A stretch of 64,000 nt of DNA from an uncultured archaeon (GCA_964545795.1 CAZJGC010000001.1:6585-70584); one strand, 5' to 3'. Shown: positions 1-57,743, numbered from the stretch's first letter. Notes: generated by a model from the letters alone, not told the origin. Made by a program: numbers and translations.

Positions 1-8
1 ACGGATTT

Positions 9-2729
9 GTGCAGAGGCAGACAATAGAGAGAAAGAAAGACGGCTCAATTGTGATATCATTTGCTAACTTAAAGAGGCTGCCTGTTTTTGTTTTGCTGAA
101 GCTTCTTGGTATGGAATCCGATAAAGATATAATAGAAGCCGTGTCTGCAAATGTTCCTGAAGATGTCAAAGATAAGTTCCTTAACGAAATTTATTCTAAT
201 TTGTATGCTCTGGATGTTGCAACAAAGAGTGATGCTTATGAGTTTGTTGGAAAACACATGAAAATTATTCAAAAAGAGTATGTGAAAGAAAGAGTTGATG
301 CTTTATTGGACAGATACTGCGTTCCGCATCTCGGGCAGGAACAGAAAAATAGAAAGGAAAAAGCAATATATTTGGCAACTGCCGTAAGAAAACTTATTCT
401 TTTTGCTCTTAATAAAATTCCAAAAGATGACCTTGACCATTATACCAACAAAAGGCTTAAGACTTCAGGAAAACTTCTGGAGCTTTTGTTCAGGTCTATG
501 TTGATTGGAAGATGGGGTTTGATTGCAAGAGTAAATTATAACTATCAGAAACTTGCGAAAAGAGGCAAACTGCCTTCAGTGCAGACTATTGTTGAATCAA
601 ATGTTATAACAAATCAGTTAATATCTTCTATGGGGACAGGTTCATGGGTGGGAGGAAGAAGCGGCGTAAGCCAGAGGCTTGGTCGCGAAAATTTTGTATC
701 AGCCCTTTCGCATATCAGAACAGTAAGTTCTCCATTAACCTCAAGTCAGGAGCATTTTGAAGCAAGAGAACTTCATACAACGCAGTTTGGAAGATTATGC
801 CCTGCTGAAACTCCAGAAGGTCCTACAATAGGTCTTAGGAAATATATGGCTGCTCTTGCCGAGATTACAAGCGATATTTCTGAACTTGAAAAGAAGAAAA
901 TAATTTCTGCTTTAAAGGTTGCTCCTCATGGCAAAAAGCCTTGCGCAGTATTTGTTGACGGCACTCCAATCGGAAGCGTTGAAGACGGCGAAAGCCTTGC
1001 AGTTGAACTAAGAAACAAGAGGCGTGCGGGGCTGTTAAGCAAACTTATGAATGTTGCTTATTATCCGCATCTTAATGAATTGAGAATTAATACTGATGCA
1101 GGCAGATTAAGAAGACCGCTTGTGATAATAGACGGAGAACCAAAGTTAAAGCAGGAGCACATTGATAAAATAAAGGAAGGCATAATGTCATGGAATGATC
1201 TTATTGAAGGAGGCATAATAGAGTATCTGGATGCTGAAGAAGAAGAAAATGCTCTTGTATGCATTTCTGAGGAGTATCTTAACAAAGAGAAATATACTCA
1301 TATGGAAATTTCTTCCATGTCGCCTCTTGGTTTGTCGGCATCGCTTGTTCCTTTCCCGGAATACAACAGAGGAGACCGCGTAAACTATGGAGCAAAAATG
1401 ATGAAACAGTCTGTTGGTTTGTATGCTTCTAATTATTATTTAAGGAGCGATACAAAATCAAATATTCTTAATTATCCGCAGGTTCCTATAGTTGAAACAG
1501 AAACAGTTAATGCCGCAGGCATAACAAAACATCCTGCAGGGCAGAACGTTGTTATAGCAATTGTAACTTATCACGGGTATAATATGGAAGACGCTATTGT
1601 TATGAATAAGGCGTCTATAGAACGCGGTTTATTCAGGTCAACATTTTTCCGTTTCTATTCAGGAGAAGAGAAAAGGTATTGGGGTGGACAGGAAGATTTA
1701 ATATCAATACCTGATAAAGATGTTCGGGGTTATAGAAGCGAAGAAGCGTATGCTCATCTTGGAGAAGATGGCATAGTTAATCCTGAGCATAAAATAAAGG
1801 GAGGAGATGTATTGGTAGGAAGGACTTCTCCTTTAAGATTTGTAAGCGCCGATTCTGAACTCATGGCTGGCATAATAAATAGACGCGAAACTTCAATATG
1901 CATAAAGCATGGAGAAGAAGGCATAGTAGACAGAGTGTTTATTACAGAGTCAAAGGATGGAAACAAGCTTGTTAAGATATGCGTGAGAGATGAGAGAATA
2001 CCCGAAATTGGAGATAAGTTTGCTTCAAGGCACGGGCAAAAGGGCGTGATAGGTTTAATAGCAAATGAAGAAGACATGCCTTTCACAGCGAATGGCATTG
2101 TTCCTGACATTCTTATTAATCCTCATAGTTTTCCTTCAAGGCAAACTGTTGGTCAACTTTTGGAAACTCTCGGAGGCAAGGCGGCAGCGGTTTCAGGAAG
2201 AAAAGTGAATGCATCTGCATTTATAGGCGCAAATGAAAATGAGTTAAGGGAAATTCTTAAGCAGGCTGGTTTCAGGAGTGATGGAAAGGAAATAATGTAT
2301 TCAGGAGTTACAGGAGAAAAATTTGAGGTTGAGATATTTGTTGGTGTAACATATTATCAGAAACTTTATCATATGGTGGCTGACAAAATACAGGCTCGGG
2401 CAAGAGGGCCTGTTACTTTGCTTACAAAACAGCCGACAGAAGGGCGTGCAAAGGAGGGAGGATTAAGGCTCGGGGAAATGGAAAAGGATTGTTTAATTGC
2501 TCATGGCGCTGTTCTGGCTTTGAAGGAGAGATTCAGTTCAGACAAGGTAGTAGTTCCTGTGTGCAAGGAGTGTGGGTTAGTGGCAATGAAAAATAAATTA
2601 AAAAACAAGCATGTTTGTCCTTTGTGCAAGTCCTCAGAAATCGTGCACGTTGAAGCCGCTTATGCATTTAAACTTTTGCTTGATGAACTCAGAACCATGC
2701 TGATATATCCAAAACTTAATGTTGAATAG
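9..2729 (+). CDS. rpoB: DNA-directed RNA polymerase subunit B (C-terminal part / B'); 5' end lies outside the window
   Basis: 906-aa ORF open at the window edge. It carries the conserved RpoB C-terminal region (GDKFASRHGQKG, the C-terminal Zn-binding CxxC...CxxC) and is followed directly by rpoA1 and rpoA2 in the canonical archaeal order. Confidence 0.9.
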   Translation: MQRQTIERKKDGSIVISFANLKRLPVFVLLKLLGMESDKDIIEAVSANVPEDVKDKFLNEIYSNLYALDVATKSDAYEFVGKHMKIIQKEYVKERVDALLDRYCVPHLGQEQKNRKEKAIYLATAVRKLILFALNKIPKDDLDHYTNKRLKTSGKLLELLFRSMLIGRWGLIARVNYNYQKLAKRGKLPSVQTIVESNVITNQLISSMGTGSWVGGRSGVSQRLGRENFVSALSHIRTVSSPLTSSQEHFEARELHTTQFGRLCPAETPEGPTIGLRKYMAALAEITSDISELEKKKIISALKVAPHGKKPCAVFVDGTPIGSVEDGESLAVELRNKRRAGLLSKLMNVAYYPHLNELRINTDAGRLRRPLVIIDGEPKLKQEHIDKIKEGIMSWNDLIEGGIIEYLDAEEEENALVCISEEYLNKEKYTHMEISSMSPLGLSASLVPFPEYNRGDRVNYGAKMMKQSVGLYASNYYLRSDTKSNILNYPQVPIVETETVNAAGITKHPAGQNVVIAIVTYHGYNMEDAIVMNKASIERGLFRSTFFRFYSGEEKRYWGGQEDLISIPDKDVRGYRSEEAYAHLGEDGIVNPEHKIKGGDVLVGRTSPLRFVSADSELMAGIINRRETSICIKHGEEGIVDRVFITESKDGNKLVKICVRDERIPEIGDKFASRHGQKGVIGLIANEEDMPFTANGIVPDILINPHSFPSRQTVGQLLETLGGKAAAVSGRKVNASAFIGANENELREILKQAGFRSDGKEIMYSGVTGEKFEVEIFVGVTYYQKLYHMVADKIQARARGPVTLLTKQPTEGRAKEGGLRLGEMEKDCLIAHGAVLALKERFSSDKVVVPVCKECGLVAMKNKLKNKHVCPLCKSSEIVHVEAAYAFKLLLDELRTMLIYPKLNVE

Positions 2730-2732
2730 TAA

Positions 2733-5225
2733 GTGATTGATATGATTAAGTCAATTGAATTTAAAATATTTTCGCCTGAAATGATAAAGAAGATGTCAGT
2801 TGTTGAAATAACAAGGCCTGAACTCTATGATAACGATGGTTTCCCCATAGAAAACGGAGTTATGGATCCAAAACTTGGAGTTATTGACCCGGGCATGAGA
2901 TGCAGAACATGCGGAAACACTGTTGGAGATTGTCTTGGGCATTTTGGGCACATAGAACTTGTGAAACCTATAACTCATGTTTTATATATAAAGACAATAT
3001 ACAAATTGCTTAAAATTACATGCAGGGAATGCGGCAGATTGCTTTCAAAGGAAAAGAAACCTGTCAAGAAATGCAGACATTGCGGGGCTGAGCAGGGCGA
3101 TATAAAACTTGAAAAGCCGACTACAATAATTGAAAACAAAAAAGTTCTTAATCAGATAAAAATAAGAGAGAGGTTGGAAAAAATACCTGATGAGGATTTG
3201 GAGGAAATAGGTTTTAGAGGAGGGAGGCCTGAATGGCTGATTCTAACTGTATTTCCTGTTCCTCCTGTGACAATGAGACCTTCTATAACGCTTGAAACAG
3301 GAAACAGAAGCGAAGATGACCTTACGCATAAGCTTGTTGACATAGTAAGAATAAATCAGTTGCTAAAGGAAAACATTATGATTGGCGCTCCTGATTTCAT
3401 TATTGATGACTTATGGGAGCTTCTCCAGTATCATGTATCCACATTCTTTGACAATGAAATAACAGGAGTTCCGCATGCAAGCCATAGGTCAGGAAGACCT
3501 TTGAGAACTCTTGCGCAGAGATTGAAGACAAAAGACGGAAGGTTCAGACAGAACTTGACAGGAAAAAGAGTTAATTTTTCATCAAGAACAGTTATCTCTC
3601 CTGACTGCAATATAAGCATTAATGAAGTTGGAGTTCCGCTTGTAGTGGCTAAAGTTGTTACAGTTCCTGTTGTTGTGAATAAGAACAATATAGAATATTT
3701 AAGGAAACTTGTTTCTAATGGCGAGACATGGCCTGGAGCAAGCTATGTAATAAGGCCTGATGGAAGAAAAAAGAAAATAACATCAGAAAATGCAAGCGAG
3801 ATAGCGTCAGAGATTGATGTCGGTTATGTTGTGGAAAGGCATTTGCAGGATGGAGACATAGTATTGTTCAACAGACAGCCATCGCTTCACAGAATGAGCA
3901 TTATGGCTCATCATGCGCGCATAACTCCTTGGCGGACATTTACATTGAATCTTTCTGTATGCGCTCCATATAATGCTGATTTTGATGGAGATGAAATGAA
4001 TTTGCATGTGCTTCAGACAGAAGAAGCGCGAGCGGAAGCAATAATGCTTATGGAGGTTCAGAGGCACATACGTTCTCCAAGGTTCGGAGGTCCTATAATT
4101 GGTTGTTCTCAAGACCATATTTCAGGAACATACATGCTTACAAGAAAGACTACAAAATTATCCCGTGAGGAAGTTTTCCAGATTATGTCAGAAATAGGAG
4201 CAGATGTTGAGGTTCCAGACAAAAAAACATTTACAGGAAAAGAAGTATTCAGCCTTATATTGCCTAAGGGGCTTAACATGGAGTTCAAGGCAAAGGCATG
4301 CAGGGGATGCAGGGCATGCAAGAAAACATCATGCGAATATGATGCGTATGTTTCAATAAAGAATGGACAGTTGAAAACAGGGTTAATAGATAAAAAAGCA
4401 ATAGGAGGAGAACATGGAAAAATTATTGATGTAATAGAAAAAACATATGGCACAGAAGTTGTTCACAGATTCATAGATAAAGTTGGTCTTCTTGGAATTA
4501 AGTATCTGTTGAAAACAGGATTTACCTTTGGATTAGATGATATTGATATATCTGAACATTCTGTAAATGAAATAAAGGAAAAGGTAAATGAATTAAAGAA
4601 GGATGTTTCAGTTGTGATATCTGATGCTGAGAAAGGAAAGGTTGAACTGATTCCGGGAAGAAATGCAAGAGAGAGTGTTGAGACGCATATAATGCGCATT
4701 CTTTCAAAGTCAATGGATGCTGCCGAGTCAGTGATATCCAAAGAACTGGTAGAAAACTGCGCAGTAGTTATGGCGCGTTCCGGAGCAAGAGGAGGAATTG
4801 CGCACCTTGTCCAGATGGCTGGTTTGGTTGGTCAGGAAAAGGTGCTTGGAGAAAGAATACATAGAGGATACTTTAACAGAACTCTTTCGCATTTCAGGCA
4901 GGATGAACTTTCTCCTGAGGCTCATGGATTTGTTACAAACTCTTATAAATCTGGTTTGAATGTTTTTGAGTTCTTCTTTAATTCAATGTCTGGTCGTGAG
5001 AACCTGATGGACAAGTCATTGAAGACAAAGCATTCTGGATACTTGGAGAGAAGGCTTATGAATGCATTGCAGGACTTGAGGGTTGAATATGATATGACAG
5101 TCAGAGATAACAGGGGAGTGATTATACAATTTAAGCCGGGAGAAGATGGAATAGACCCTGCAAAATCTGAGTGGGGAATGCTTGATGTAAGAACTATAAT
5201 TCAGAATATGATGAATAAGCAGTAG
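2733..5225 (+). CDS. rpoA1: DNA-directed RNA polymerase subunit A'
   Basis: 830 aa. N-terminal Zn-ribbon ([17 protein letters not shown]) and the catalytic [10 protein letters not shown] motif; sits between rpoB and rpoA2. Confidence 0.92.
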
Positions 5226-6376
5226 TGATTGTTATGAGTGAAGAAAATATTAAACAGGAAATTGAGTTGCCTCCAAAGATACTGAAAGATATTGAAAAGG
5301 TGTTTAGTGAATTAAAGCCAAGCGAGGCTCAGAAAAAGAAGATAATTGAGAGAGTAAAAGAAGTATATAAGAAGTCTTTATATGAACCGGGAGAAGCCAT
5401 AGGAATTGTAACAGCTCAAAGCATTTCAGAACCGGGCACTCAGATGACAATGAGGAGTTATCATCTTGCAGGCGCGGTTGAGATTAAAGTAACGCAGGGT
5501 TTGCCAAGGCTTATAGAAATTTTTGACGCCAGAAAAACTCCAACAACCCCTACAATGACAATCTACTTGAAGAAGGAGTATAATTCAATGAAAGATGCAA
5601 AACGCCTTGTGGCTAAAATACGCGAAACAAGATTGGGTGATATTCTTGAAAATTCTTCAATAGATATTGTAAATATGACAATAGAATTTGTTTTGTCTGA
5701 AAAGAAGATGAAGGATATTTCAATAACCAGAGAGCATCTTGTTGAGAAGCTTAAAGAAATAAAAAATATAAGTATATCTAACAGGGCAAAGTCCATAGTA
5801 GTAAAGCCGAAAACGGAAATGTCAATAAAAGAACTTCAGAAGTTGAAATTTAAAATAATGGAGACATATATAAAAGGAGTTAAAGGAATTGAACAGGGAA
5901 TTGTTCATGAGGAAGATAATGAATGGGTTATAAAAACTTTGGGAAGCAACCTGAAGGAGATAATCAAATTTAAGGAAGTTGACTGCAAGAGAATTGCGAC
6001 AAACAACATTTTTGAAATATTGGATGTTTTTGGAGTTGAAGCCGCGCGTTCCGCCATAGTGAATGAAACAATGAAGACATTGAAAGACCAGGGTCTTAAT
6101 GTTGACATAAGGCATATTTTGCTTCTGGCTGATTTAATGACAGTGGACGGCACAATTATGTCTATAGGAAGGTATGGATTGGCAGGGTCAAAAGGTTCTG
6201 TTCTTGCAAGGGCTAATTTTGAAGAGACAATAAAGCATCTTATAGGTGCATCTGTTGTCGGAGAAGTTGACAGGTTGAACAGTGTAGTTGAAAATGTAAT
6301 GATAAACCAGGTAGTGCCTATAGGCACAGGCATGTTTGACCTTATTTATCAGCCAAAGAAAAAGAAAAGAATTTAA
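5225..6376 (+). CDS. rpoA2: DNA-directed RNA polymerase subunit A''
   Basis: 383 aa. Overlaps the rpoA1 stop and continues the Rpb1 C-terminal homology (trigger-loop region [12 protein letters not shown]...). Confidence 0.88.
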
Positions 6377-6409
6377 ATATTGATTTTAATAAGAAATAAA
6401 GTGATTTTA

Positions 6410-6685
6410 ATGAATGCGAGCGATATATCTTCAGAAATAAAAACAGCTCTTGCTGAGAATAAGGCTGTTATAGGTGCAAATTCTGTAAAGAAGATGCTTA
6501 GAGCAGGCAGACTTAAGGTTGTTGTTCTTGCATCAAATTGCCCTGAAAATATTAAGGATGACATTATGCACTATTCTAAATTAGCGGCGGCAAAGGTAGA
6601 AAACTTTGAGTCCACAGGAAAAGAGCTTGGTATAATCTGCGGAAAACCCTTTTCAATAGCTGTTCTTGGAATAAGGCAGAGTTGA
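6410..6685 (+). CDS. rpl30e: 50S ribosomal protein L30e
   Basis: Typical L30e sequence (LRAGRLKVVVLASNCPENIKDDI). Placed after rpoA2 as in archaeal rpo operons. The longest ORF starts at 6380; the internal Met at 6410 fits family length better. Confidence 0.8.
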   Translation: MNASDISSEIKTALAENKAVIGANSVKKMLRAGRLKVVVLASNCPENIKDDIMHYSKLAAAKVENFESTGKELGIICGKPFSIAVLGIRQS

Positions 6686-6689
6686 TGAT

Positions 6690-7088
6690 ATGAGAATTTT
6701 TGACACAAATACAATAAAAGTTATATCTGCTTTTGAGAAATTAACTCGTTCTGAAGTAAGGGATTGCATAATTAATGAGAATTCAATTTATTTTCTTGTT
6801 AATAAAGGAAAAATGGGGCTTACTATAGGCAAGGGCGGAAAGACAATTAAGTCAGCGGAAAAATTATTTAAGAAGCAGATAAAAGTTTTTGAATATTCTC
6901 CTGATCAGGAGGAGTTTGTAAAAAATCTTATGCCTCAGGCAAGCAAAATAGAAATTAAAGGAAGCAAAGTTGTTGTGTCTGCTGGAAACAAACGCGGAAT
7001 ATTGATAGGCAAGAACGGTTTAAATATAAAATGCATAAAAATACTGTTGGAGCGCAATTCCGATATAAAAAAACTTGAAGTTAAATAG
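6690..7088 (+). CDS. nusA: NusA-like transcription termination/antitermination factor (two KH domains)
   Basis: 132 aa with two GxxG KH-type motifs (GKGGKTIK, GKNGLNIK). Archaeal NusA position after L30e. Confidence 0.8.
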   Translation: MRIFDTNTIKVISAFEKLTRSEVRDCIINENSIYFLVNKGKMGLTIGKGGKTIKSAEKLFKKQIKVFEYSPDQEEFVKNLMPQASKIEIKGSKVVVSAGNKRGILIGKNGLNIKCIKILLERNSDIKKLEVK

Positions 7089-7097
7089 ATAAGAAAA

Positions 7098-8303
7098 TTA
7101 CTTTTTAAGCTTTGAAAAGTTAAATTCCTTGATAAATTTGTCTATTTCTGATTCATTTACATAAGAAAGATTTTCCATTGCCGAATGTTCAAATTTTTTT
7201 GCAAATAATTCTGAAGGCAGCCATTGCCACATATCATATTTCCCTAATTTTAATGTGCATAAGTCAATCCAATATTCATTAGATGTATTAATTCCTTCTT
7301 TTTCACATATTTCCCTTGCTTGTTTATTTAATTTTTCATTCATGCCGGGAATGCTGTCTGCATACGAGTGTCCTGCTTCATGCGCTAATACTCTGATAAT
7401 GTTTTTAACATAGTTATTGTTGACGGGCTCAACCGTTTCTACATTTATAGCAACTATACCGTCTTTAAAGTATGCTCCACTAACTGGCAAGTATCTCAAT
7501 GAAAAATCTTTGGATTTTGCAAATATTGTTTTTGTATTATTTCGTATAAACTCGTAATCAGGCGGGCTGTATTTCTTTGCAAATTCAAAAGCCATGACAA
7601 TTTTTTCCTGAAAATACTCTGGGCCTTCTATTTTTATTCCATTATAGTTGATAGGTTCAGCGAATGTTTTTAGGAAATTTTCATCTCTTTTCGCTTGTCT
7701 GGATTTGACCTCTATTTCAGTTTCAGCAACGCTAATTTTGCCTTTGTCATCTTTCACATTAAGTATTATGTGATAAGTACGAAACCATGGAGCGTTTTTT
7801 AATACCGGAATTCTTTTCTTGAATATAGGACTTGTCGTAACCTCTGCTTCAGATTTTTTATTTAACTCGGGAATATACCAACTATATTCAACTATTTCTC
7901 CGTCAGGATCATAACTTTTGCTTGCATTAAACACAAATGTTTCTCCTTCAACCCAATCCAAAGGAGCATCTATCTTTATTTTAGCAACAGGTGGTTCGTT
8001 TGATAAATTTTGGTAAGTTAAGTTGTCTGTCTTCGCAGGAGTATTAGAAGTATTGTTTGATTTATAAATTTCATACATTTCATTAATTTTTGAAATATTG
8101 TTAGCAGTGATAGGAGGAGCAGTAGGGACCGACATCAAAATTTCAGATTTTGCATTTTCTATTTTATGGTCAACAGAATCTGCAAAATCTTTATTGTATT
8201 CATTAACCCCAATTGCCCCTGCATAAGCAGTTAATAAAGCAGCTGCGCTCAAATATGGATGTTTCTCTATCCAGTTAATTGCTTTGCCAAGAAGCCGGAA
8301 CAT
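7098..8303 (-). CDS. membrane-anchored PKD-domain protein with C-terminal HEXXH (zinc metallopeptidase-like) motif
   Basis: 401 aa. N-terminal hydrophobic anchor, a PKD-like segment (FNASKSYDPDGEIVEYSWYIPE) and LAHEAGHSY near the C-terminus. Paralogous to the adjacent gene. Confidence 0.65.
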   Translation of the reverse strand: MFRLLGKAINWIEKHPYLSAAALLTAYAGAIGVNEYNKDFADSVDHKIENAKSEILMSVPTAPPITANNISKINEMYEIYKSNNTSNTPAKTDNLTYQNLSNEPPVAKIKIDAPLDWVEGETFVFNASKSYDPDGEIVEYSWYIPELNKKSEAEVTTSPIFKKRIPVLKNAPWFRTYHIILNVKDDKGKISVAETEIEVKSRQAKRDENFLKTFAEPINYNGIKIEGPEYFQEKIVMAFEFAKKYSPPDYEFIRNNTKTIFAKSKDFSLRYLPVSGAYFKDGIVAINVETVEPVNNNYVKNIIRVLAHEAGHSYADSIPGMNEKLNKQAREICEKEGINTSNEYWIDLCTLKLGKYDMWQWLPSELFAKKFEHSAMENLSYVNESEIDKFIKEFNFSKLKK

Positions 8304-8315
8304 GACGTTTACCTC

Positions 8316-9857
8316 TTAGTTTTTGAATTTTGAGAAGTCAAACTCAAAAAGGAATTTGTTTATTTCTTCATCAGTTATATGCGAGAGATTTTCTCTTGCT
8401 GTTTTGGAAAATTTTTCGGCATATAATTCAGGAGGATACCAGTCCTTATAACTTGATTCGCCAAGTTTTTTTGTGCATAAATCTATCCAGTATGATTTAG
8501 ACAAATCTGTTCCATGACTTCTGCACATATCCTTTGCTTCGTTAATTAATTTTTTCTTTAACTCTGGGTTGTGTTCTATATAGGAGTGTCCTGCTTCATG
8601 GGCGAGTTTGTCCAAGAAAGTATTGAAAAGATGTCTTTCTCTCAATATAGCGTATTTTGAATTTATAGGAGTTATTGAGTTTTTGGCATAATCAGATATA
8701 TCAGTTATATGGCTTTTTATTTTGAATGTTCTTGGTTTTGCAACTATTATTTTTGTATTTTCATGAATAAACTTATAGTCGTCAGGATTGTATTTCTTTG
8801 TAAAGTCAAGGGTCATTACCACGCTTTCTTGAAATCTTTCAGGACCTTTTATAATTATTCCGTCATACTTGACAGCATCTGCAAATGTTCTTGAAAATTT
8901 TTCATCACTTTCTGAAAACACGGATTTTAGCTGAATTTCGGCTTTGTCAGTGCCTATGCTGTTATTTTCATCCTTTACTCTGAGTGTTATGCGGTAATTA
9001 TGAATTTTTGGAGAATTTCTTGTTGCAGGAAGTTCTTTTTCAAAGAAAGGTTTTTCTGTTATGACAGTTTCTTTATATAGTTTTCCGTCTGTAATGTTCC
9101 ATATATATTCCACTATTTTTCCATCAGGGTCATAACTTTCGTTTGCGCTGAATAGAAGCGGTTTTCCTTCAACCCATCCGTATGGAGCTTCTATCTTCAT
9201 TTTGGCGACAGGCGGTTTGTTTGACAGTTTTTTTGTTGTGTTGTCTGCTTCCGCATAACTAATATTGCGGGTTTTCCCTGTCTCGTTAACTTTTAAAGTA
9301 TTGTTATAAGCGGGTGTAGGAGAAGCAGTTGGGGTTGAGAGTAAAATCTCTGATTTTGCTTTTGCTATTCCATTATCAACAGCATTGTTTGCAGAATCTT
9401 TATTATTTAAGTATTGGTTGACTCCTATTGCTCCTGCATATGTTGCCAGCAAGGCACCAGCGCTTAAATACGGATGTTTTTCTATCCAGTTGATTACCCT
9501 GCCAAGAAATCCTTTTCCGCCGGTTTCATGCCCTGTTTCTGCTGTTTCAAAAAAACCAAGAACAGCATTTTCATCTTTTATGAAATTCTTTTTCCTGCCT
9601 GTTCTCTCAATCACAACTGAAACATAATTTTCTGTTTCCCTTAGCCATGCATCGTTTTTGTTGTTTAATAAAAATGAGATTGGGTCAAAACCAATCTTAT
9701 TGTAAACAGAATCAATGTCTACTCCATATTCTTTTGCCTTCTGCTCTATTCTTGTTAGAGAGTCAAGAACCTGATTCTCATCGCTGTTATATCTTGCCTC
9801 AAAGTCATCAATGCGCGGATATTCCGCGCCGCTCACATATTTGACCATAGCGCTCAC
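8316..9857 (-). CDS. membrane-anchored PKD-domain protein with HEXXH motif (longer paralog with ~130-aa cytoplasmic N-extension)
   Basis: 513 aa. Same architecture (FSANESYDPDGKIVEYIWNITDG ... LAHEAGHSY) as the downstream gene. Shared N-terminal anchor sequence INWIEKHPYLSA. Confidence 0.65.
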   Translation of the reverse strand: MSAMVKYVSGAEYPRIDDFEARYNSDENQVLDSLTRIEQKAKEYGVDIDSVYNKIGFDPISFLLNNKNDAWLRETENYVSVVIERTGRKKNFIKDENAVLGFFETAETGHETGGKGFLGRVINWIEKHPYLSAGALLATYAGAIGVNQYLNNKDSANNAVDNGIAKAKSEILLSTPTASPTPAYNNTLKVNETGKTRNISYAEADNTTKKLSNKPPVAKMKIEAPYGWVEGKPLLFSANESYDPDGKIVEYIWNITDGKLYKETVITEKPFFEKELPATRNSPKIHNYRITLRVKDENNSIGTDKAEIQLKSVFSESDEKFSRTFADAVKYDGIIIKGPERFQESVVMTLDFTKKYNPDDYKFIHENTKIIVAKPRTFKIKSHITDISDYAKNSITPINSKYAILRERHLFNTFLDKLAHEAGHSYIEHNPELKKKLINEAKDMCRSHGTDLSKSYWIDLCTKKLGESSYKDWYPPELYAEKFSKTARENLSHITDEEINKFLFEFDFSKFKN

Positions 9858-52474: not shown

Positions 52475-52752
52475 AGCAGGAGAATAGACCGGGTTGTTCG
52501 GCGTAACCTGTAACCCGAAATCGTCGTTATGCGGGGGTCGAAGTCTGGGAGCGCTTGCAGAAGTCTGTGAAGGCCTGCAATTCAACTGAGAAGCTTCGTC
52601 TTCTGGAGCTGTGGCTATAGTGAACCGACCCAGGTCCGGAAGGAAGCAAGTCTAATCTATAGTTACGGCGTTCAGAAGGTTGCGGAGTGGAGGCGAGTTG
52701 CAGGACTACCTTCGCAGGTTTTTGCCGGCAATCTCAGATGCTTCTCCTGCTA
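52475..52752 (+). ncRNA. ffs: signal recognition particle RNA (7S/SRP RNA)
   Basis: ORF-free, GC-rich ~280-nt island. It contains the universally conserved domain-IV motif CCAGGUCCGGAAGGAAGCA. A terminal helix closes it (5' GCAGGAGAA pairs with 3' UUCUCCUGC). Confidence 0.7.
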
Positions 52753-54921: not shown

Positions 54922-54983
54922 AATTGGTGCTCCCGATGGGACTTTCAAAACAGGAAAAAACGGAATCCATGCTCTTCCTTAAG

Positions 54984-55013
54984 GATAAGGGGTTGCATGT
55001 TCTGGACAGCCCC
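54984..55013. repeat. hairpin repeat unit GATAAGGGGTTGCATGTTCTGGACAGCCCC (copy 1, inside the tRNA-Glu intron)
   Basis: 30-mer with a GGGG...CCCC stem; second copy 56 nt downstream. Confidence 0.6.
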
Positions 55014-55039
55014 GCTTTTCATGCTCTTCAATGGGGGTT

Positions 55040-55069
55040 GATAAGGGGTTGCATGTTCTGAACAGCCCC
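55040..55069. repeat. hairpin repeat unit copy 2 (GATAAGGGGTTGCATGTTCTGAACAGCCCC)
   Basis: 29/30 identical to copy 1. Confidence 0.6.
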
Positions 55070-55087
55070 TTATTTTGAACCCATGTC

Positions 55088-55408
55088 TCAAGCTCGAGAG
55101 GCTTGAATCCTTGACCGGACTAGACGACGGGAGCGTTTTTTTGTTGTTAAAACAGATTCCATGGTTTTTGTTATTGACCTCTGAGAGATTTTTATCATAA
55201 TAAATGCTATAACAACAACTATAAATGTTATAATTGTTGCAGCAATGAATTTATATATAACGCCTTCACCTGAAGGCACAAGACTATTTATAAATGCCTG
55301 CATTGCATCTCTCCAGCTAAGCGCCACCAAAAAACCAAGAGCAGTTATAATTGAACCTATTATAATATTTTTGAGATTCATTCTTTCTACATCTTCCTGA
55401 AATGTCAT
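55088..55408 (-). CDS. hypothetical membrane protein; C-terminal 47 nt overlap the tRNA-Glu 5' exon
   Basis: 106 aa, 2-3 TM. The basic tail KKRSRRLVRSRIQASRA is encoded by tRNA sequence, so the true stop/extent is doubtful. Confidence 0.35.
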   Translation of the reverse strand: MTFQEDVERMNLKNIIIGSIITALGFLVALSWRDAMQAFINSLVPSGEGVIYKFIAATIITFIVVVIAFIMIKISQRSITKTMESVLTTKKRSRRLVRSRIQASRA

Positions 55409-55416
55409 GACAACAC

Positions 55417-55556
55417 CTTATTAAAATGGTGAGCCCGGAGGGATTCTCATAACCCTTAATTTGAACCCCCGACTTACTGGTCCGAAGCTTCGACTTAAAT
55501 AATCAGTCGCTTTAGACCAAAAATGCTTTTGTCTGTCCAGGCTGAGCCACGGGCCC
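55417..55556 (-). tRNA. tRNA (isotype unresolved) with a 16-nt insertion in the T-loop and a 15-nt insertion in the anticodon arm; CCA encoded
   Basis: Minus strand: acceptor GGGCCCG/CGGGCUC (one G-U). D-loop AGCCUGG... T-stem GGGGG/CCCUC, with UUCAAAU then UAAGGGUUAUGAGAAU before the 3' stem. A + CCA + T-run. The anticodon region CGACU-GAUUAUUUA-AGUCG plus the GUCGAAGCUUCGGAC hairpin did not resolve into a canonical 7-nt loop by eye. Confidence 0.5.
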
Positions 55557-56007: not shown

Positions 56008-57360
56008 ATGCTTGCTCATATAATATTTTCCAAGTTTATATCCAAGAGTTCTGTAATATTCCCTGACTCCCACTCCCGAGATAACAGAAATTTTCTTAAA
56101 CCCATTTTCCATTGCAATTGCTTCAGCTTCTTGCATTAATTTCTTTCCCAAACCTTTATGCTGAATTATTCCCTTTTTATTAAGTCCTGCCTGCCTTCCG
56201 AATACATGGAGTTCTCTTACTATTGCCGAGTTCTCCAGCTCCTTTACGAATGTTCTTTCCTGCAGCCTTAATCTGAGAATTCCAAGCACTGTTTTATGCC
56301 TGTCTTCATATGATAAAAATATTTCCCTGCCTCCGGAAGCTCTATAATCTATTCTTTTAACTTTCAAAGAATCATAATCAATGTTTCTTCCATCCCTTAA
56401 AACATAACCTGCTTCCCTGCATCTTATGCATTTGCATTTCCTGCCGCGTGATTTTATTTCATCTCTAAGATGAGAATAAACACACTCTGATAATATATAC
56501 TCTGCAGGTATGTCGCGCATTACTCTCATAATTCTTACATATTCAGGAATATTCTTCTTTATTTCAATTATTGTTTCTATTATCTGCTGCGTAGTATAAG
56601 GTTTGTATTTTCCAGAATTGTAAAGATTCTCCAGTTCCGTTCCTTTTATAACAAGAGTTGGATATATCTTTATCTGGTCAGGCTGAAAACGTTCATCTGA
56701 GAAAAGCATCTCAAAAGTTTTAATGTCTTTTTCAGGAGAAGAACCTGGAAGCCCTATCATCATATGATAACCTACTTTGAAACCCGCCTGCTTTAATAGT
56801 TCTGTAGAAGAAACAACATCTTCTACTGTGTGTCCGCGTTTTATTTTTTTATAAATCCCATTATCAAGAGTTTGGACTCCAATTTCTACTCTTGTGCAGC
56901 CAAAATTAAGAAATCTTATTATTTCCTTTTCATCTAATTCCGGTCTTGTTTCAAGACACAGGGCAACGCATCTGTGTTTTGCTGTTTCATTTATCGCCTT
57001 CGCCTGTTCAAGGTTTTCCGATTCCTTTTCGTTTAGTCCGTCAAAACATGCCTTTACAAATGATTCCTGATAATTTTCAGGATAATTTGAAAAAGTTCCA
57101 CCCATTATTATAAGCTCAACTTTGTCTGTTTCATGCCCCAATATTTTCAATACCTTTAACCTTCCCTGCACCTGTCTTTTTCCATCCCATTTGCTTCTTA
57201 CAGCCCTGAGAACAACAGGACTTTTTGATGTGTAACTCTTTGGTATTCCAGGCTCAGAGGGGCAATATATGCAACTATTTGAACATGGAAAAGGCTTGAG
57301 CATAACAGCCACAGGAACAATCCCTGATATGGAACGCGTTGATTTTCTCGGTTTATGCAT
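56002..57360 (-). CDS. elp3: tRNA uridine(34) acetyltransferase Elp3 homolog (radical SAM + GNAT)
   Basis: CSNSCIYC radical-SAM cluster motif and a C-terminal GNAT acetyltransferase domain. Confidence 0.8.
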   Translation of the reverse strand: MHKPRKSTRSISGIVPVAVMLKPFPCSNSCIYCPSEPGIPKSYTSKSPVVLRAVRSKWDGKRQVQGRLKVLKILGHETDKVELIIMGGTFSNYPENYQESFVKACFDGLNEKESENLEQAKAINETAKHRCVALCLETRPELDEKEIIRFLNFGCTRVEIGVQTLDNGIYKKIKRGHTVEDVVSSTELLKQAGFKVGYHMMIGLPGSSPEKDIKTFEMLFSDERFQPDQIKIYPTLVIKGTELENLYNSGKYKPYTTQQIIETIIEIKKNIPEYVRIMRVMRDIPAEYILSECVYSHLRDEIKSRGRKCKCIRCREAGYVLRDGRNIDYDSLKVKRIDYRASGGREIFLSYEDRHKTVLGILRLRLQERTFVKELENSAIVRELHVFGRQAGLNKKGIIQHKGLGKKLMQEAEAIAMENGFKKISVISGVGVREYYRTLGYKLGKYYMSKHL

Positions 57361-57394
57361 AAATCTTTTAATAGATTAAAAATTATTTAAAGTA

Positions 57395-57425
57395 GGGGAC
57401 TGCGCAATAAATGCAATCCCCTACA
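57395..57425. repeat. hairpin repeat unit GGGGACTGCGCAATAAATGCAATCCCCTACA (copy 1)
   Basis: 31-mer with a GGGGA...TCCCC stem; second copy at 57494. Confidence 0.55.
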
Positions 57426-57430
57426 ACCCC

Positions 57431-57480
57431 AATAAGGGAAAGTGCAGAGCATGAATTTCCTTAACAACCCTTAGTAAAGG
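57431..57480. repeat. ectopic copy of the tRNA-Leu T-loop intron sequence (47/50 identical to 57666-57715)
   Basis: AATAAGGGAAAGTGCAGAGCATGAATTTCCTTAACAACCCTTAGTAAAGG lies 57 nt upstream of the tRNA-Leu 5' end, outside any tRNA exon context. Confidence 0.6.
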
Positions 57481-57493
57481 AGTATGCAAAAAC

Positions 57494-57524
57494 GGGGACT
57501 GCGCAATAAATGCAATCCCCTACA
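57494..57524. repeat. hairpin repeat unit copy 2
   Basis: Identical 31-mer except the last bases; ends 13 nt before the tRNA-Leu 5' end. Confidence 0.55.
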
Positions 57525-57536
57525 TTGCAGAAACAT

Positions 57537-57735
57537 GCGGGGGTCGCCAAACAGTCTTTCTCTAAATGAGAAGGGCTGGACAAAGCCAGGTCAAAGGTGC
57601 TAGGTTGAGGGCCTAGTTGGTAAAGTTTACAAAAAACTTCAACAATAGTCCATTCGTGAGTTCAAAATAAGGGAAGGTGCAGAGCATGAATTTCCTTAAC
57701 AAGCCTTAGTAAAGAAAGTCTCACCCCCCGCACCA
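57537..57735 (+). tRNA. tRNA-Leu(GAG) with insertions in the D-loop, variable region and T-loop; CCA encoded
   Basis: Acceptor GCGGGGG/CCCCCGC. UC, then GCC D-stem, a ~34-nt insertion, then AGCCAGGUCAAA-GGU. Anticodon arm CUAGG-UUGAGGG-CCUAG (G37). Oversized variable region. T-stem GUGAG/CUCAC, with UUCAAAA then a 52-nt insertion before the 3' stem. Discriminator A + CCA + T-run. Confidence 0.65.
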
Positions 57736-57743
57736 TATTTGAG

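Follow-up and report, generated by a model that had tools for sequence, protein, structure and literature searches.

tRNA genes and their introns

The stretch of archaeal DNA analysed here (the window, 64,000 nt) carries a complete tRNA-Leu gene that is preceded, at 57395-57536, by an array of hairpins containing a copy of one of the gene's own introns. The window is AT-rich (G+C content, 36%), and the best protein matches of the neighbouring genes are in metagenome-assembled genomes labelled Nanoarchaeota, Nanoarchaeia or Woesearchaeota. The host is a small DPANN-type archaeon with many introns in its tRNA genes. Positions 1-9740 and 9741-64000 of the window are separate contigs in JGI metagenome 3300023442 (Ga0256751_1000480 and Ga0256751_1000025, respectively), the window's proteins are also found on a 135,733-nt NCBI contig, and the organism is present in Logan assembly SRR9849955. 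A look-up by exact protein match, aimed at strain variants of the locus, brought back the identical contig only, with no population variation to compare. The window also encodes an archaeal SRP RNA at 52477-52749 (+), which scores 171.6 bits and covers 273 nt against 317 model positions, a 40-position stretch being absent.

Neither ARAGORN with default settings nor the Rfam tRNA model, even at E ≤ 5, called a single tRNA in the window, and ARAGORN with introns allowed and a lowered threshold returned only noise. A search of the window for acceptor stems and CCA ends revealed the three tRNA genes that these programs had missed, all with an encoded CCA, and in-silico splicing then confirmed two of them, tRNA-Leu and tRNA-Glu. 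The tRNA-Leu(GAG) gene (57537-57735, +), which has an orthologue in the relative L003 (see below), contains three introns, located in the D loop (~57549-57584), the variable arm (~57621-57644) and the T loop (57667-57718). Removal of the resident T-loop intron together with the other two restores a tRNA-Leu(gag) that is recognised by ARAGORN. The tRNA-Glu(CUC) gene (54925-55134, -) has one T-loop intron of 132 nt (54942-55073), removal of which gives a 78-nt tRNA-Glu(ctc). The third gene (55427-55556, -) has the acceptor stem GGGCCCG and three introns, at ~22/23, ~31/32 and 59/60. This gene is most likely tRNA-Arg(UCG); taking out the 15-nt anticodon-arm intron gives a 78-nt tRNA-Arg(tcg), and other splice choices give other identities. 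Annotation of genomes like that of the host would list such tRNAs as missing, as non-canonical introns hide them. A called DUF5654 gene (55088-55408, -) extends ~47 nt into the start of tRNA-Glu, as it also does in L003 (3754-4131). The order tRNA-DUF5654-tRNA-Glu on one strand suggests either that tRNA and mRNA are combined in one transcript or that the gene call reaches too far.

All three tRNAs have an intron at T-loop position 59/60, and each of these introns starts with (A/T)TAAGGG right after TTCAAA. Position 59/60 is a listed non-canonical position for archaeal tRNA introns (PMC4090602). In the third tRNA, the 16-nt intron TTAAGGGTTATGAGAA forms a strict textbook bulge-helix-bulge, in which the T stem is the outer helix, TTCA (54-57) and TGAG form a 4-bp central helix, the bulges are AAT and AAT, and the mini hairpin TAA-GGG-TTA is the inner helix. 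When parsed manually, the Leu and Glu introns have AGAA or TGAA as the partner of TTCA, and AGT as the 3' bulge. In the resident Leu intron, the parts recognised by hand are the T stem, TTCA/AGAA (3 of 4 bp) and the AGT bulge. The Leu and Glu introns would thus be relaxed versions of the bulge-helix-bulge, in which a large hairpin directly after the 5' splice-site bulge takes the place of the inner helix. The strict scanner does not detect relaxed versions, the Leu motif among them, so the assignment depends on parsing by hand.

The hairpin array upstream of tRNA-Leu

The 31-mer GGGGACTGCGCAATAAATGCAATCCCCTACA occurs exactly twice in the window, at 57395-57425 and 57494-57524 (+), and none of 100 shuffles gave a match. 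The original prediction that two identical 31-nt units flank a segment of about 50 nt resembling the T-loop intron of tRNA-Leu is borne out by the alignment. The segment at 57431-57479 (+; 49 nt, termed Le here) has 2 mismatches to 57666-57714 (47/49 identical), and including one more base gives the 47/50 originally claimed. Copy and source start 235 nt apart and are separated by a gap of 187 nt. Le spans A59, a single exon base that possibly matches by chance, and bases 1-48 of the 52-nt intron, with no further exon sequence. Similarity ends ~1 nt from the 5' boundary of the intron and ~4 nt short of its 3' boundary. Neither Le nor the array as a whole lies between tRNA exons; a promoter is on its left and the complete 5' end of the tRNA is on its right. 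The segment is, as had been stated, outside any exon, and it is a nearly intron-exact copy.

The first unit, B1 (57395-57425, +), is the hairpin GGGGA-C-UGCG...UGCA-A-UCCCC plus UACA, and its stem reaches 8 bp once the left flank GTA is counted. The linker ACCCC (57426-57430, +) matches the CAACCC(CC) linker that follows the hairpins of the Glu intron and of the L003 Leu intron. Le itself consists of an L-type hairpin, CAACCC and TTAGTAAAG, and both of its differences from the resident intron fall outside the predicted stem. It is followed by GAGTATGCAAAAAC (57480-57493, +), which aligns with GAGCATGAAAAGC, a degenerate L-type remnant between the two units of the Glu intron. The second unit, B2 (57494-57524, +), has the sequence of B1, with a stem lengthened by the flanking TGCAA/TTGCA. 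The tail TTGCAGAAACAT (57525-57536, +) was compared by eye with the ends of the Leu, Glu and Arg introns; its AGAA+AC bears a weak resemblance to the 3' end of 59/60 introns (AGAA+AG), and its final bases may be ancestral. The spacing between the two units is 68 nt, with Le beginning 5 nt past the first and stopping 14 nt before the second. The layout amounts to 1.3 copies of a 99-nt period, which Tandem Repeats Finder did not report.

Folding of the units, a check proposed with the original prediction, yielded hairpins, with a folding energy of -12.6 kcal/mol for each B unit (z = -4.3). In the 142-nt spacer as a whole, the hairpins form independently of one another (z = -4.1) and leave the tRNA fold undisturbed. 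A strict bulge-helix-bulge scan of 57380-57740 gave chance-type matches only, with a scanner that also misses true relaxed introns. The pseudo-junction TTTA/AGAA at the array is without an outer helix when compared by eye (AATTA versus TGCGG).

The sequence relationships of the units extend into the introns. The Glu intron was originally described as containing two copies of a different, though architecturally similar, unit. Two copies are present, at 54984-55013 and 55040-55069, one mismatch apart and with the tRNA-sense (minus strand) sequence GGGGCTGTYCAGAACATGCAACCCC; the claimed difference from the units upstream of tRNA-Leu does not stand, as all belong to one gapless family. The Glu intron (54942-55073) is an array of A1-L'-A2-L''-tail, where A1 and A2 are the two units. 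A repeat search matched the T arm plus intron of Glu and Leu at 73% over 59 nt, with the Glu unit opposite the core of the Leu intron. A 91-nt local alignment shows the upstream array to be collinear with the Glu intron, Le corresponding to A1, GAGTATGCAAAAAC to GAGCATGAAAAGC and B2 to A2, and B1 with its flanks aligns to T loop, A1 and linker with a score reached by none of 2000 shuffles. B1 and B2 are therefore diverged members of the intron-core hairpin family and not a separate kind of sequence. Since the B units and Le are of one family and collinear with the Glu intron, the module is read as a three-hairpin array, B1-Le-B2. The earlier picture of GGGG-hairpin-CCCC units bracketing an intron has to be abandoned, since the alignments make these units diverged relatives of the intron core itself.

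Eight units, comprising A1 and A2, B1 and B2, the Leu intron core, Le, and both hairpins of the L003 Leu intron, align over ~41 nt without an internal gap. An 11-bp hairpin laid on this alignment is 82% paired, and four of its pairs are changed on both sides. None of 500 shuffles reaches the observed covariation, and alignments slid by 1-3 columns score lower. Evidence from these eight related sequences that the hairpin itself is conserved is modest but consistent. The B loop is purely A/T as a result of three changes relative to the A loop. In the third tRNA, the 16-nt intron has nothing but the TAAGGG start in common with the family. To judge from these alignments, the normal home of the family is the T-loop (59/60) introns of tRNAs in the host lineage.

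Further copies were sought on three levels. A family profile recovered only its own eight units (six in the window and two in L003), with nothing else in the 64 kb or in the relatives' loci. Collections of viral contigs, metagenome contigs and GTDB genomes were scanned for the hairpin; none of these collections contains the host genome or returned its locus. In them, a degenerate hairpin pattern gave no match in viral contigs, one chance match in metagenome contigs (GC-rich bacterial DNA) and eight chance bacterial matches in GTDB genomes, and a Leu-type pattern gave no match in viral contigs. The search originally proposed for the units and the 50-mer covered the window, the relatives' loci and, by hairpin pattern, these three collections, and yielded no further copy. 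Against Rfam 15 at permissive thresholds, the best scores were 12-21 bits compared with gathering thresholds of 38-60, and no family matched. The suggestion that the locus represents a small structured RNA family finds support only in the hairpin, given that there was neither an Rfam match nor another copy in the 64 kb, the relatives' loci or the three collections.

The array is placed between the 5' end of tRNA-Leu and a conserved divergent promoter, presumably common to that gene and Elp3. TATA-like hexamers across the window peak 28-31 nt before ATG (33 in two bins versus 0-6 in others), from which it follows that most mRNAs are leaderless and which provides a distance rule for promoters. 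One recurring promoter core is TTATTTAAAG, seen, e.g., ahead of Nre in both L003 and L024. Following the rule, the TATA box of the Elp3 gene is TTTAAATA (57384-57391, -), at -31 of the ATG at 57360, within the -31 to -28 peak. Its motif TTATTTAAAGTA is common to the window, L003 and L004. The insertion starts 3 nt beyond this box, and the Elp3 promoter is therefore intact. A second TATA-like box, TTTTAATAG (57366-57374, +), is conserved in L003 and L004. It is likely the ancestral promoter of tRNA-Leu, with a predicted start at ~57395-57399, the first bases of B1. If this old promoter is still used, the array would be the exact 5' leader of pre-tRNA-Leu.

Syntenic loci in related archaea

Two relatives have a syntenic Elp3-tRNA-Leu locus, namely L003 (GCA_964461015.1), in which Elp3 is 74% identical and gene order is conserved, and L004 (JGI 3300003543), in which a partial Elp3 gene is 83% identical. 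Among other candidates, Elp3 homologues at ~60% identity are without the tRNA, homologues of the wHTH protein at 78-83% have no adjoining tRNA-Leu, and the P0200 locus is not syntenic. A contig with a DUF362 homologue (L025, from the same metagenome as L004) ends just past that gene, without tRNA-Glu. The L004 contig ends inside a low-complexity D-loop intron of tRNA-Leu (1-80); as in L004 and L025, contig breaks in this lineage seem to fall at or close to tRNA genes rich in introns.

The window, L003 and L004 have in common an AT-rich motif, ...CTTTTAATA..TTATTTAAA(G/A)TA. The distance from this motif to tRNA-Leu is 5 nt in L003 (TTATTTAAAATAGATAT, then the tRNA), 62 nt in L004 and 142 nt in the window. 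The 142-nt spacer is absent from the closest syntenic relative and is therefore a lineage-specific insertion of intron-family repeats. The 62-nt spacer of L004 looks unrelated to that of the window. Its reading as a decayed Le is not established; the alignment score of 30 has a shuffle p of 0.007, but 7.6% of genomic windows (22% of AT-rich ones) score equally well.

The introns themselves differ among these archaea. The L003 Leu intron is homologous to that of the window and at the same position (59/60), and it has two hairpins, one L-type and one A-type, the second of which is lacking in the window. Le has the shorter, one-hairpin state and therefore matches the present-day intron of the window and not an older form. 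The Glu introns are at 59/60 in the window and in the D loop and at 53/54 in L003. The T-arm intron of the third tRNA is at 59/60 in the window and at 53/54 in L003, and L004 has none; more distant relatives have ordinary intron-less tRNAs. It follows from these differences that gain and loss of introns are fast and confined to a small lineage. Such turnover agrees with the heavier tRNA disruption described in DPANN lineages with loop-bearing endonucleases (PMC5829648). One family in the T-loop introns of different tRNAs, together with shifting positions, indicates that copying has carried intron sequence to new sites in this lineage. In L003, the T-arm introns of two tRNAs (3599-3729 and 3992-4131) are at 53/54, each with a hairpin and then CATGAA right before TTCAAAT, and the motif GAGCATGAA recurs in the loops of the window's L-type units. 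A more distant relative, L014, encodes an SRP54 with an intein that carries a LAGLIDADG endonuclease domain (7822-9365).

Downstream of tRNA-Leu, a small acidic ORF and Nre follow directly in L003 and are ~6.6 kb further on in the host (window 57744 to beyond 64000; L024 880-1230; L003 1300-1560). The intervening block encodes a wHTH regulator, cupredoxin-domain proteins and DsbD.

Origin of the array and comparison with known systems

The reading given about an even chance here (roughly 0.5) is that the insert is an ectopic copy of the intron, made at the level of DNA upstream of tRNA-Leu and followed by local duplication, and that it is carried as a tolerated passenger in the leader. Intron sequence would have entered the DNA immediately 5' of the gene by ectopic copying over ~235 bp, guided by short homology and proceeding through template switching or gene conversion. 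The guiding homology may have been the promoter-proximal TTTAAAGTA, which resembles the junction of T loop and intron, TTCAAAATA. B1-Le-B2 would then have arisen by local duplication of the B hairpin or by its addition on two occasions. Transcription probably starts at the old promoter and includes the array in a long 5' leader, which 5' maturation would remove, and the insert would be tolerated because leaders are trimmed; the product would be neither a working intron nor a gene. In favour of this origin, the repeats, exact or nearly so, far exceed chance expectation, and the copy is limited to the intron, with its source only 235 bp away and direct repeats next to it. TTTAAAGTA, the 9 nt to the left of the insert, matches TTCAAAATA at 7 of 9 positions (background, ~0.006 per position, for a test chosen post hoc), and it is ancestral, being shared with L004.

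Several points weigh against DNA copying of a passive insert. The case is one locus in one genome, and microhomology at the junctions is provable for a few bases at most. Le is 96% identical to the resident intron, though the spacer may be older, as the L004 spacer aligns weakly with Le. Such high identity points to repeated conversion or to selection, which a pure passenger would not predict. The 100% identity of B1 and B2 and their well-kept hairpin are compatible with a function. The proposal in the original prediction that the locus reflects intron mobility can be retained in part. Intron sequence has been copied outside the tRNA, into a spacer that the nearest relative lacks, and nothing favours reverse splicing over DNA copying. 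It is possible, as a tentative reading, that the locus is an off-target product of the process that spreads introns, with the array inserted at TTTAAAGTA as a mimic of the junction TTCAAAATA. If so, this process would recognise a short T-loop-like motif in DNA or RNA and not the whole tRNA, and the exon-free copy would record the unit that moves.

A different role for the array, as a functional leader or promoter, seems unlikely. The B2 loop, AATAAAT, is at -32 to -26 relative to the 5' end of tRNA-Leu and could be a new TATA box for a nearly leaderless tRNA; alternatively, the array could act in processing or stability, or give rise to a small RNA released from the leader. The loop starts 32 nt before +1, near the 28-31 nt at which TATA-like hexamers precede starts in this genome, and the three changes that make the B loop purely A/T, the well-conserved hairpins with B1 equal to B2, and a fold far better than that of shuffled arrays (z = -4.1) all agree with a function. 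However, AATAAAT makes a poor TATA box with G/C on either side, and the identical loop in B1 has no gene at the right distance. The tRNA-Glu gene lacks its own promoter, which means that its transcript must be processed at the 5' end. Use of the shared upstream TATA by L004 would give a 62-nt leader in which no TATA-like box was seen by eye near -30, and long leaders would then be tolerated. There is also no Rfam match and, among the relatives' loci examined, no conservation outside the host genome. Less probable again is RNA-mediated mobility, in which an excised, possibly circular T-loop intron was joined to the leader by reversal or error of the endonuclease and RtcB, with reverse transcription and recombination to follow. 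A copy limited to intron sequence within 1-4 nt, an insert that extends from about the predicted start to the tRNA 5' end and is thus wholly inside the putative transcript, and a left flank that mimics the 5' splice junction speak for this route. Yet the strict scanner found no bulge-helix-bulge around the copy, and the B1-Le junction (..CAACCCC|AATAAGG) is unlike a circular-intron junction, for which a 3' end of TGAA/AGAA+2 nt is expected. The array also holds B units that the present Leu intron lacks, no reverse transcriptase is encoded in the ~20 kb of neighbouring gene calls (within ~10 kb), and published opinion leans to a DNA-level process (PMC4090602).

The remaining explanations treat the locus as part of another kind of element. 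B1 and B2 could be the ends of a hairpin-ended non-autonomous element (MITE/PATE-like, e.g., dependent on IS200/IS605) that captured intron sequence. Subterminal hairpins flanking a cargo are the end arrangement of IS200/IS605 derivatives, and the locus has two identical subterminal hairpins in direct orientation with a short cargo between them. Such an element is nevertheless very improbable here; the hairpins are kin to tRNA-intron hairpins in two species, always in the tRNA sense and at the inner-helix position of the splice motif, no other copies were found in the 64 kb or the relatives' loci, the scans of collections that lack the host genome gave no real match, and the neighbouring gene calls include no transposase. 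Likewise, tRNA genes are common integration sites (PMC3293823), and the ~6.6-kb block parts tRNA-Leu from the genes that directly follow it in L003, as might be expected if the array were the leftover of a tRNA-Leu gene duplication or of the attachment site of an integrated element that once duplicated part of the tRNA. This explanation is largely refuted by the absence of any duplicated exon sequence beside a 96% intron copy. Moreover, a search for an attachment-site repeat found the far end of the block dissimilar to the tRNA-Leu region (p about 0.5), no integrase is among the gene calls, and neither L003 nor L004 has a second tRNA at the site. Finally, the minus strand of B1 matches CRISPR-DR36 at 11.9 bits (gathering threshold, 38; E = 7.7), which could hint at a mini-array of two repeats with a self-derived spacer. 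That match is at chance level, and the repeat is homologous to intron hairpins. CRISPR arrays are recognised by at least 3 repeats, spacers of 25-50 nt, and cas genes or a leader, whereas the locus has only two repeats, a 68-nt spacer and no cas genes in neighbouring calls; a CRISPR origin is refuted for practical purposes.

Transposition of archaeal tRNA introns has been inferred from sequence similarity (PMC4090602). Exon-free intron copies are rare, and the locus bears on how archaeal tRNA introns spread. An exon-free copy with near-exact intron boundaries beside a junction-like target, absent from the nearest relative, can separate homology-guided DNA copying, RNA-level reinsertion and gene duplication. 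The introns are assembled from tandem copies of a small hairpin module, which explains the fast change of intron length and position and the failure of standard tRNA finders on three genes. Should the locus prove to be no more than a local duplication, it would be of mainly descriptive value.

The locus is best placed, on present comparisons, with known archaeal tRNA-intron transposition and duplication, the exon-free position of the copy being the new element. In Thermoproteales, similar introns have been transposed among tRNAs by a mechanism thought to act at the DNA level, with recent gain between close relatives (PMC4090602). The host resembles them in that the 59/60 introns of Leu and Glu contain members of one hairpin family and that intron positions vary among close relatives. 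Here, in contrast, the copy is outside exons, in the spacer of 5' leader and promoter, and is not a spliceable intron within a tRNA gene; instead of a crenarchaeon, the host is an AT-rich archaeon of DPANN type, and a hairpin of ~41 nt multiplies in tandem inside the introns. The leaders of split and permuted archaeal tRNAs also resemble introns, and such a leader is required for assembly of the tRNA, creating a bulge-helix-bulge by pairing with a trailer that belongs to a different transcript (Chan et al. 2011, PMC3218864; PMC4090602). Intron-like sequence upstream and an unusually long distance from promoter to tRNA are features in common, whereas the tRNA-Leu studied here is complete and no pairing partner or bulge-helix-bulge was found. 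The resident Leu, Glu and Arg introns are like the non-canonical 59/60 introns of DPANN and Crenarchaeota (PMC4090602, PMC5829648), with a strict motif in Arg and probable relaxed motifs in Leu and Glu. The upstream copy, unlike these, is without the context of a splice motif, and its removal restores nothing. The array shares a 99-nt period, identical 31-nt repeats and a donor 235 bp away with duplications made by slippage or template switching. It differs from such duplications in that the copied block matches a functional RNA element almost from boundary to boundary and that its family is found in another tRNA and in another species.
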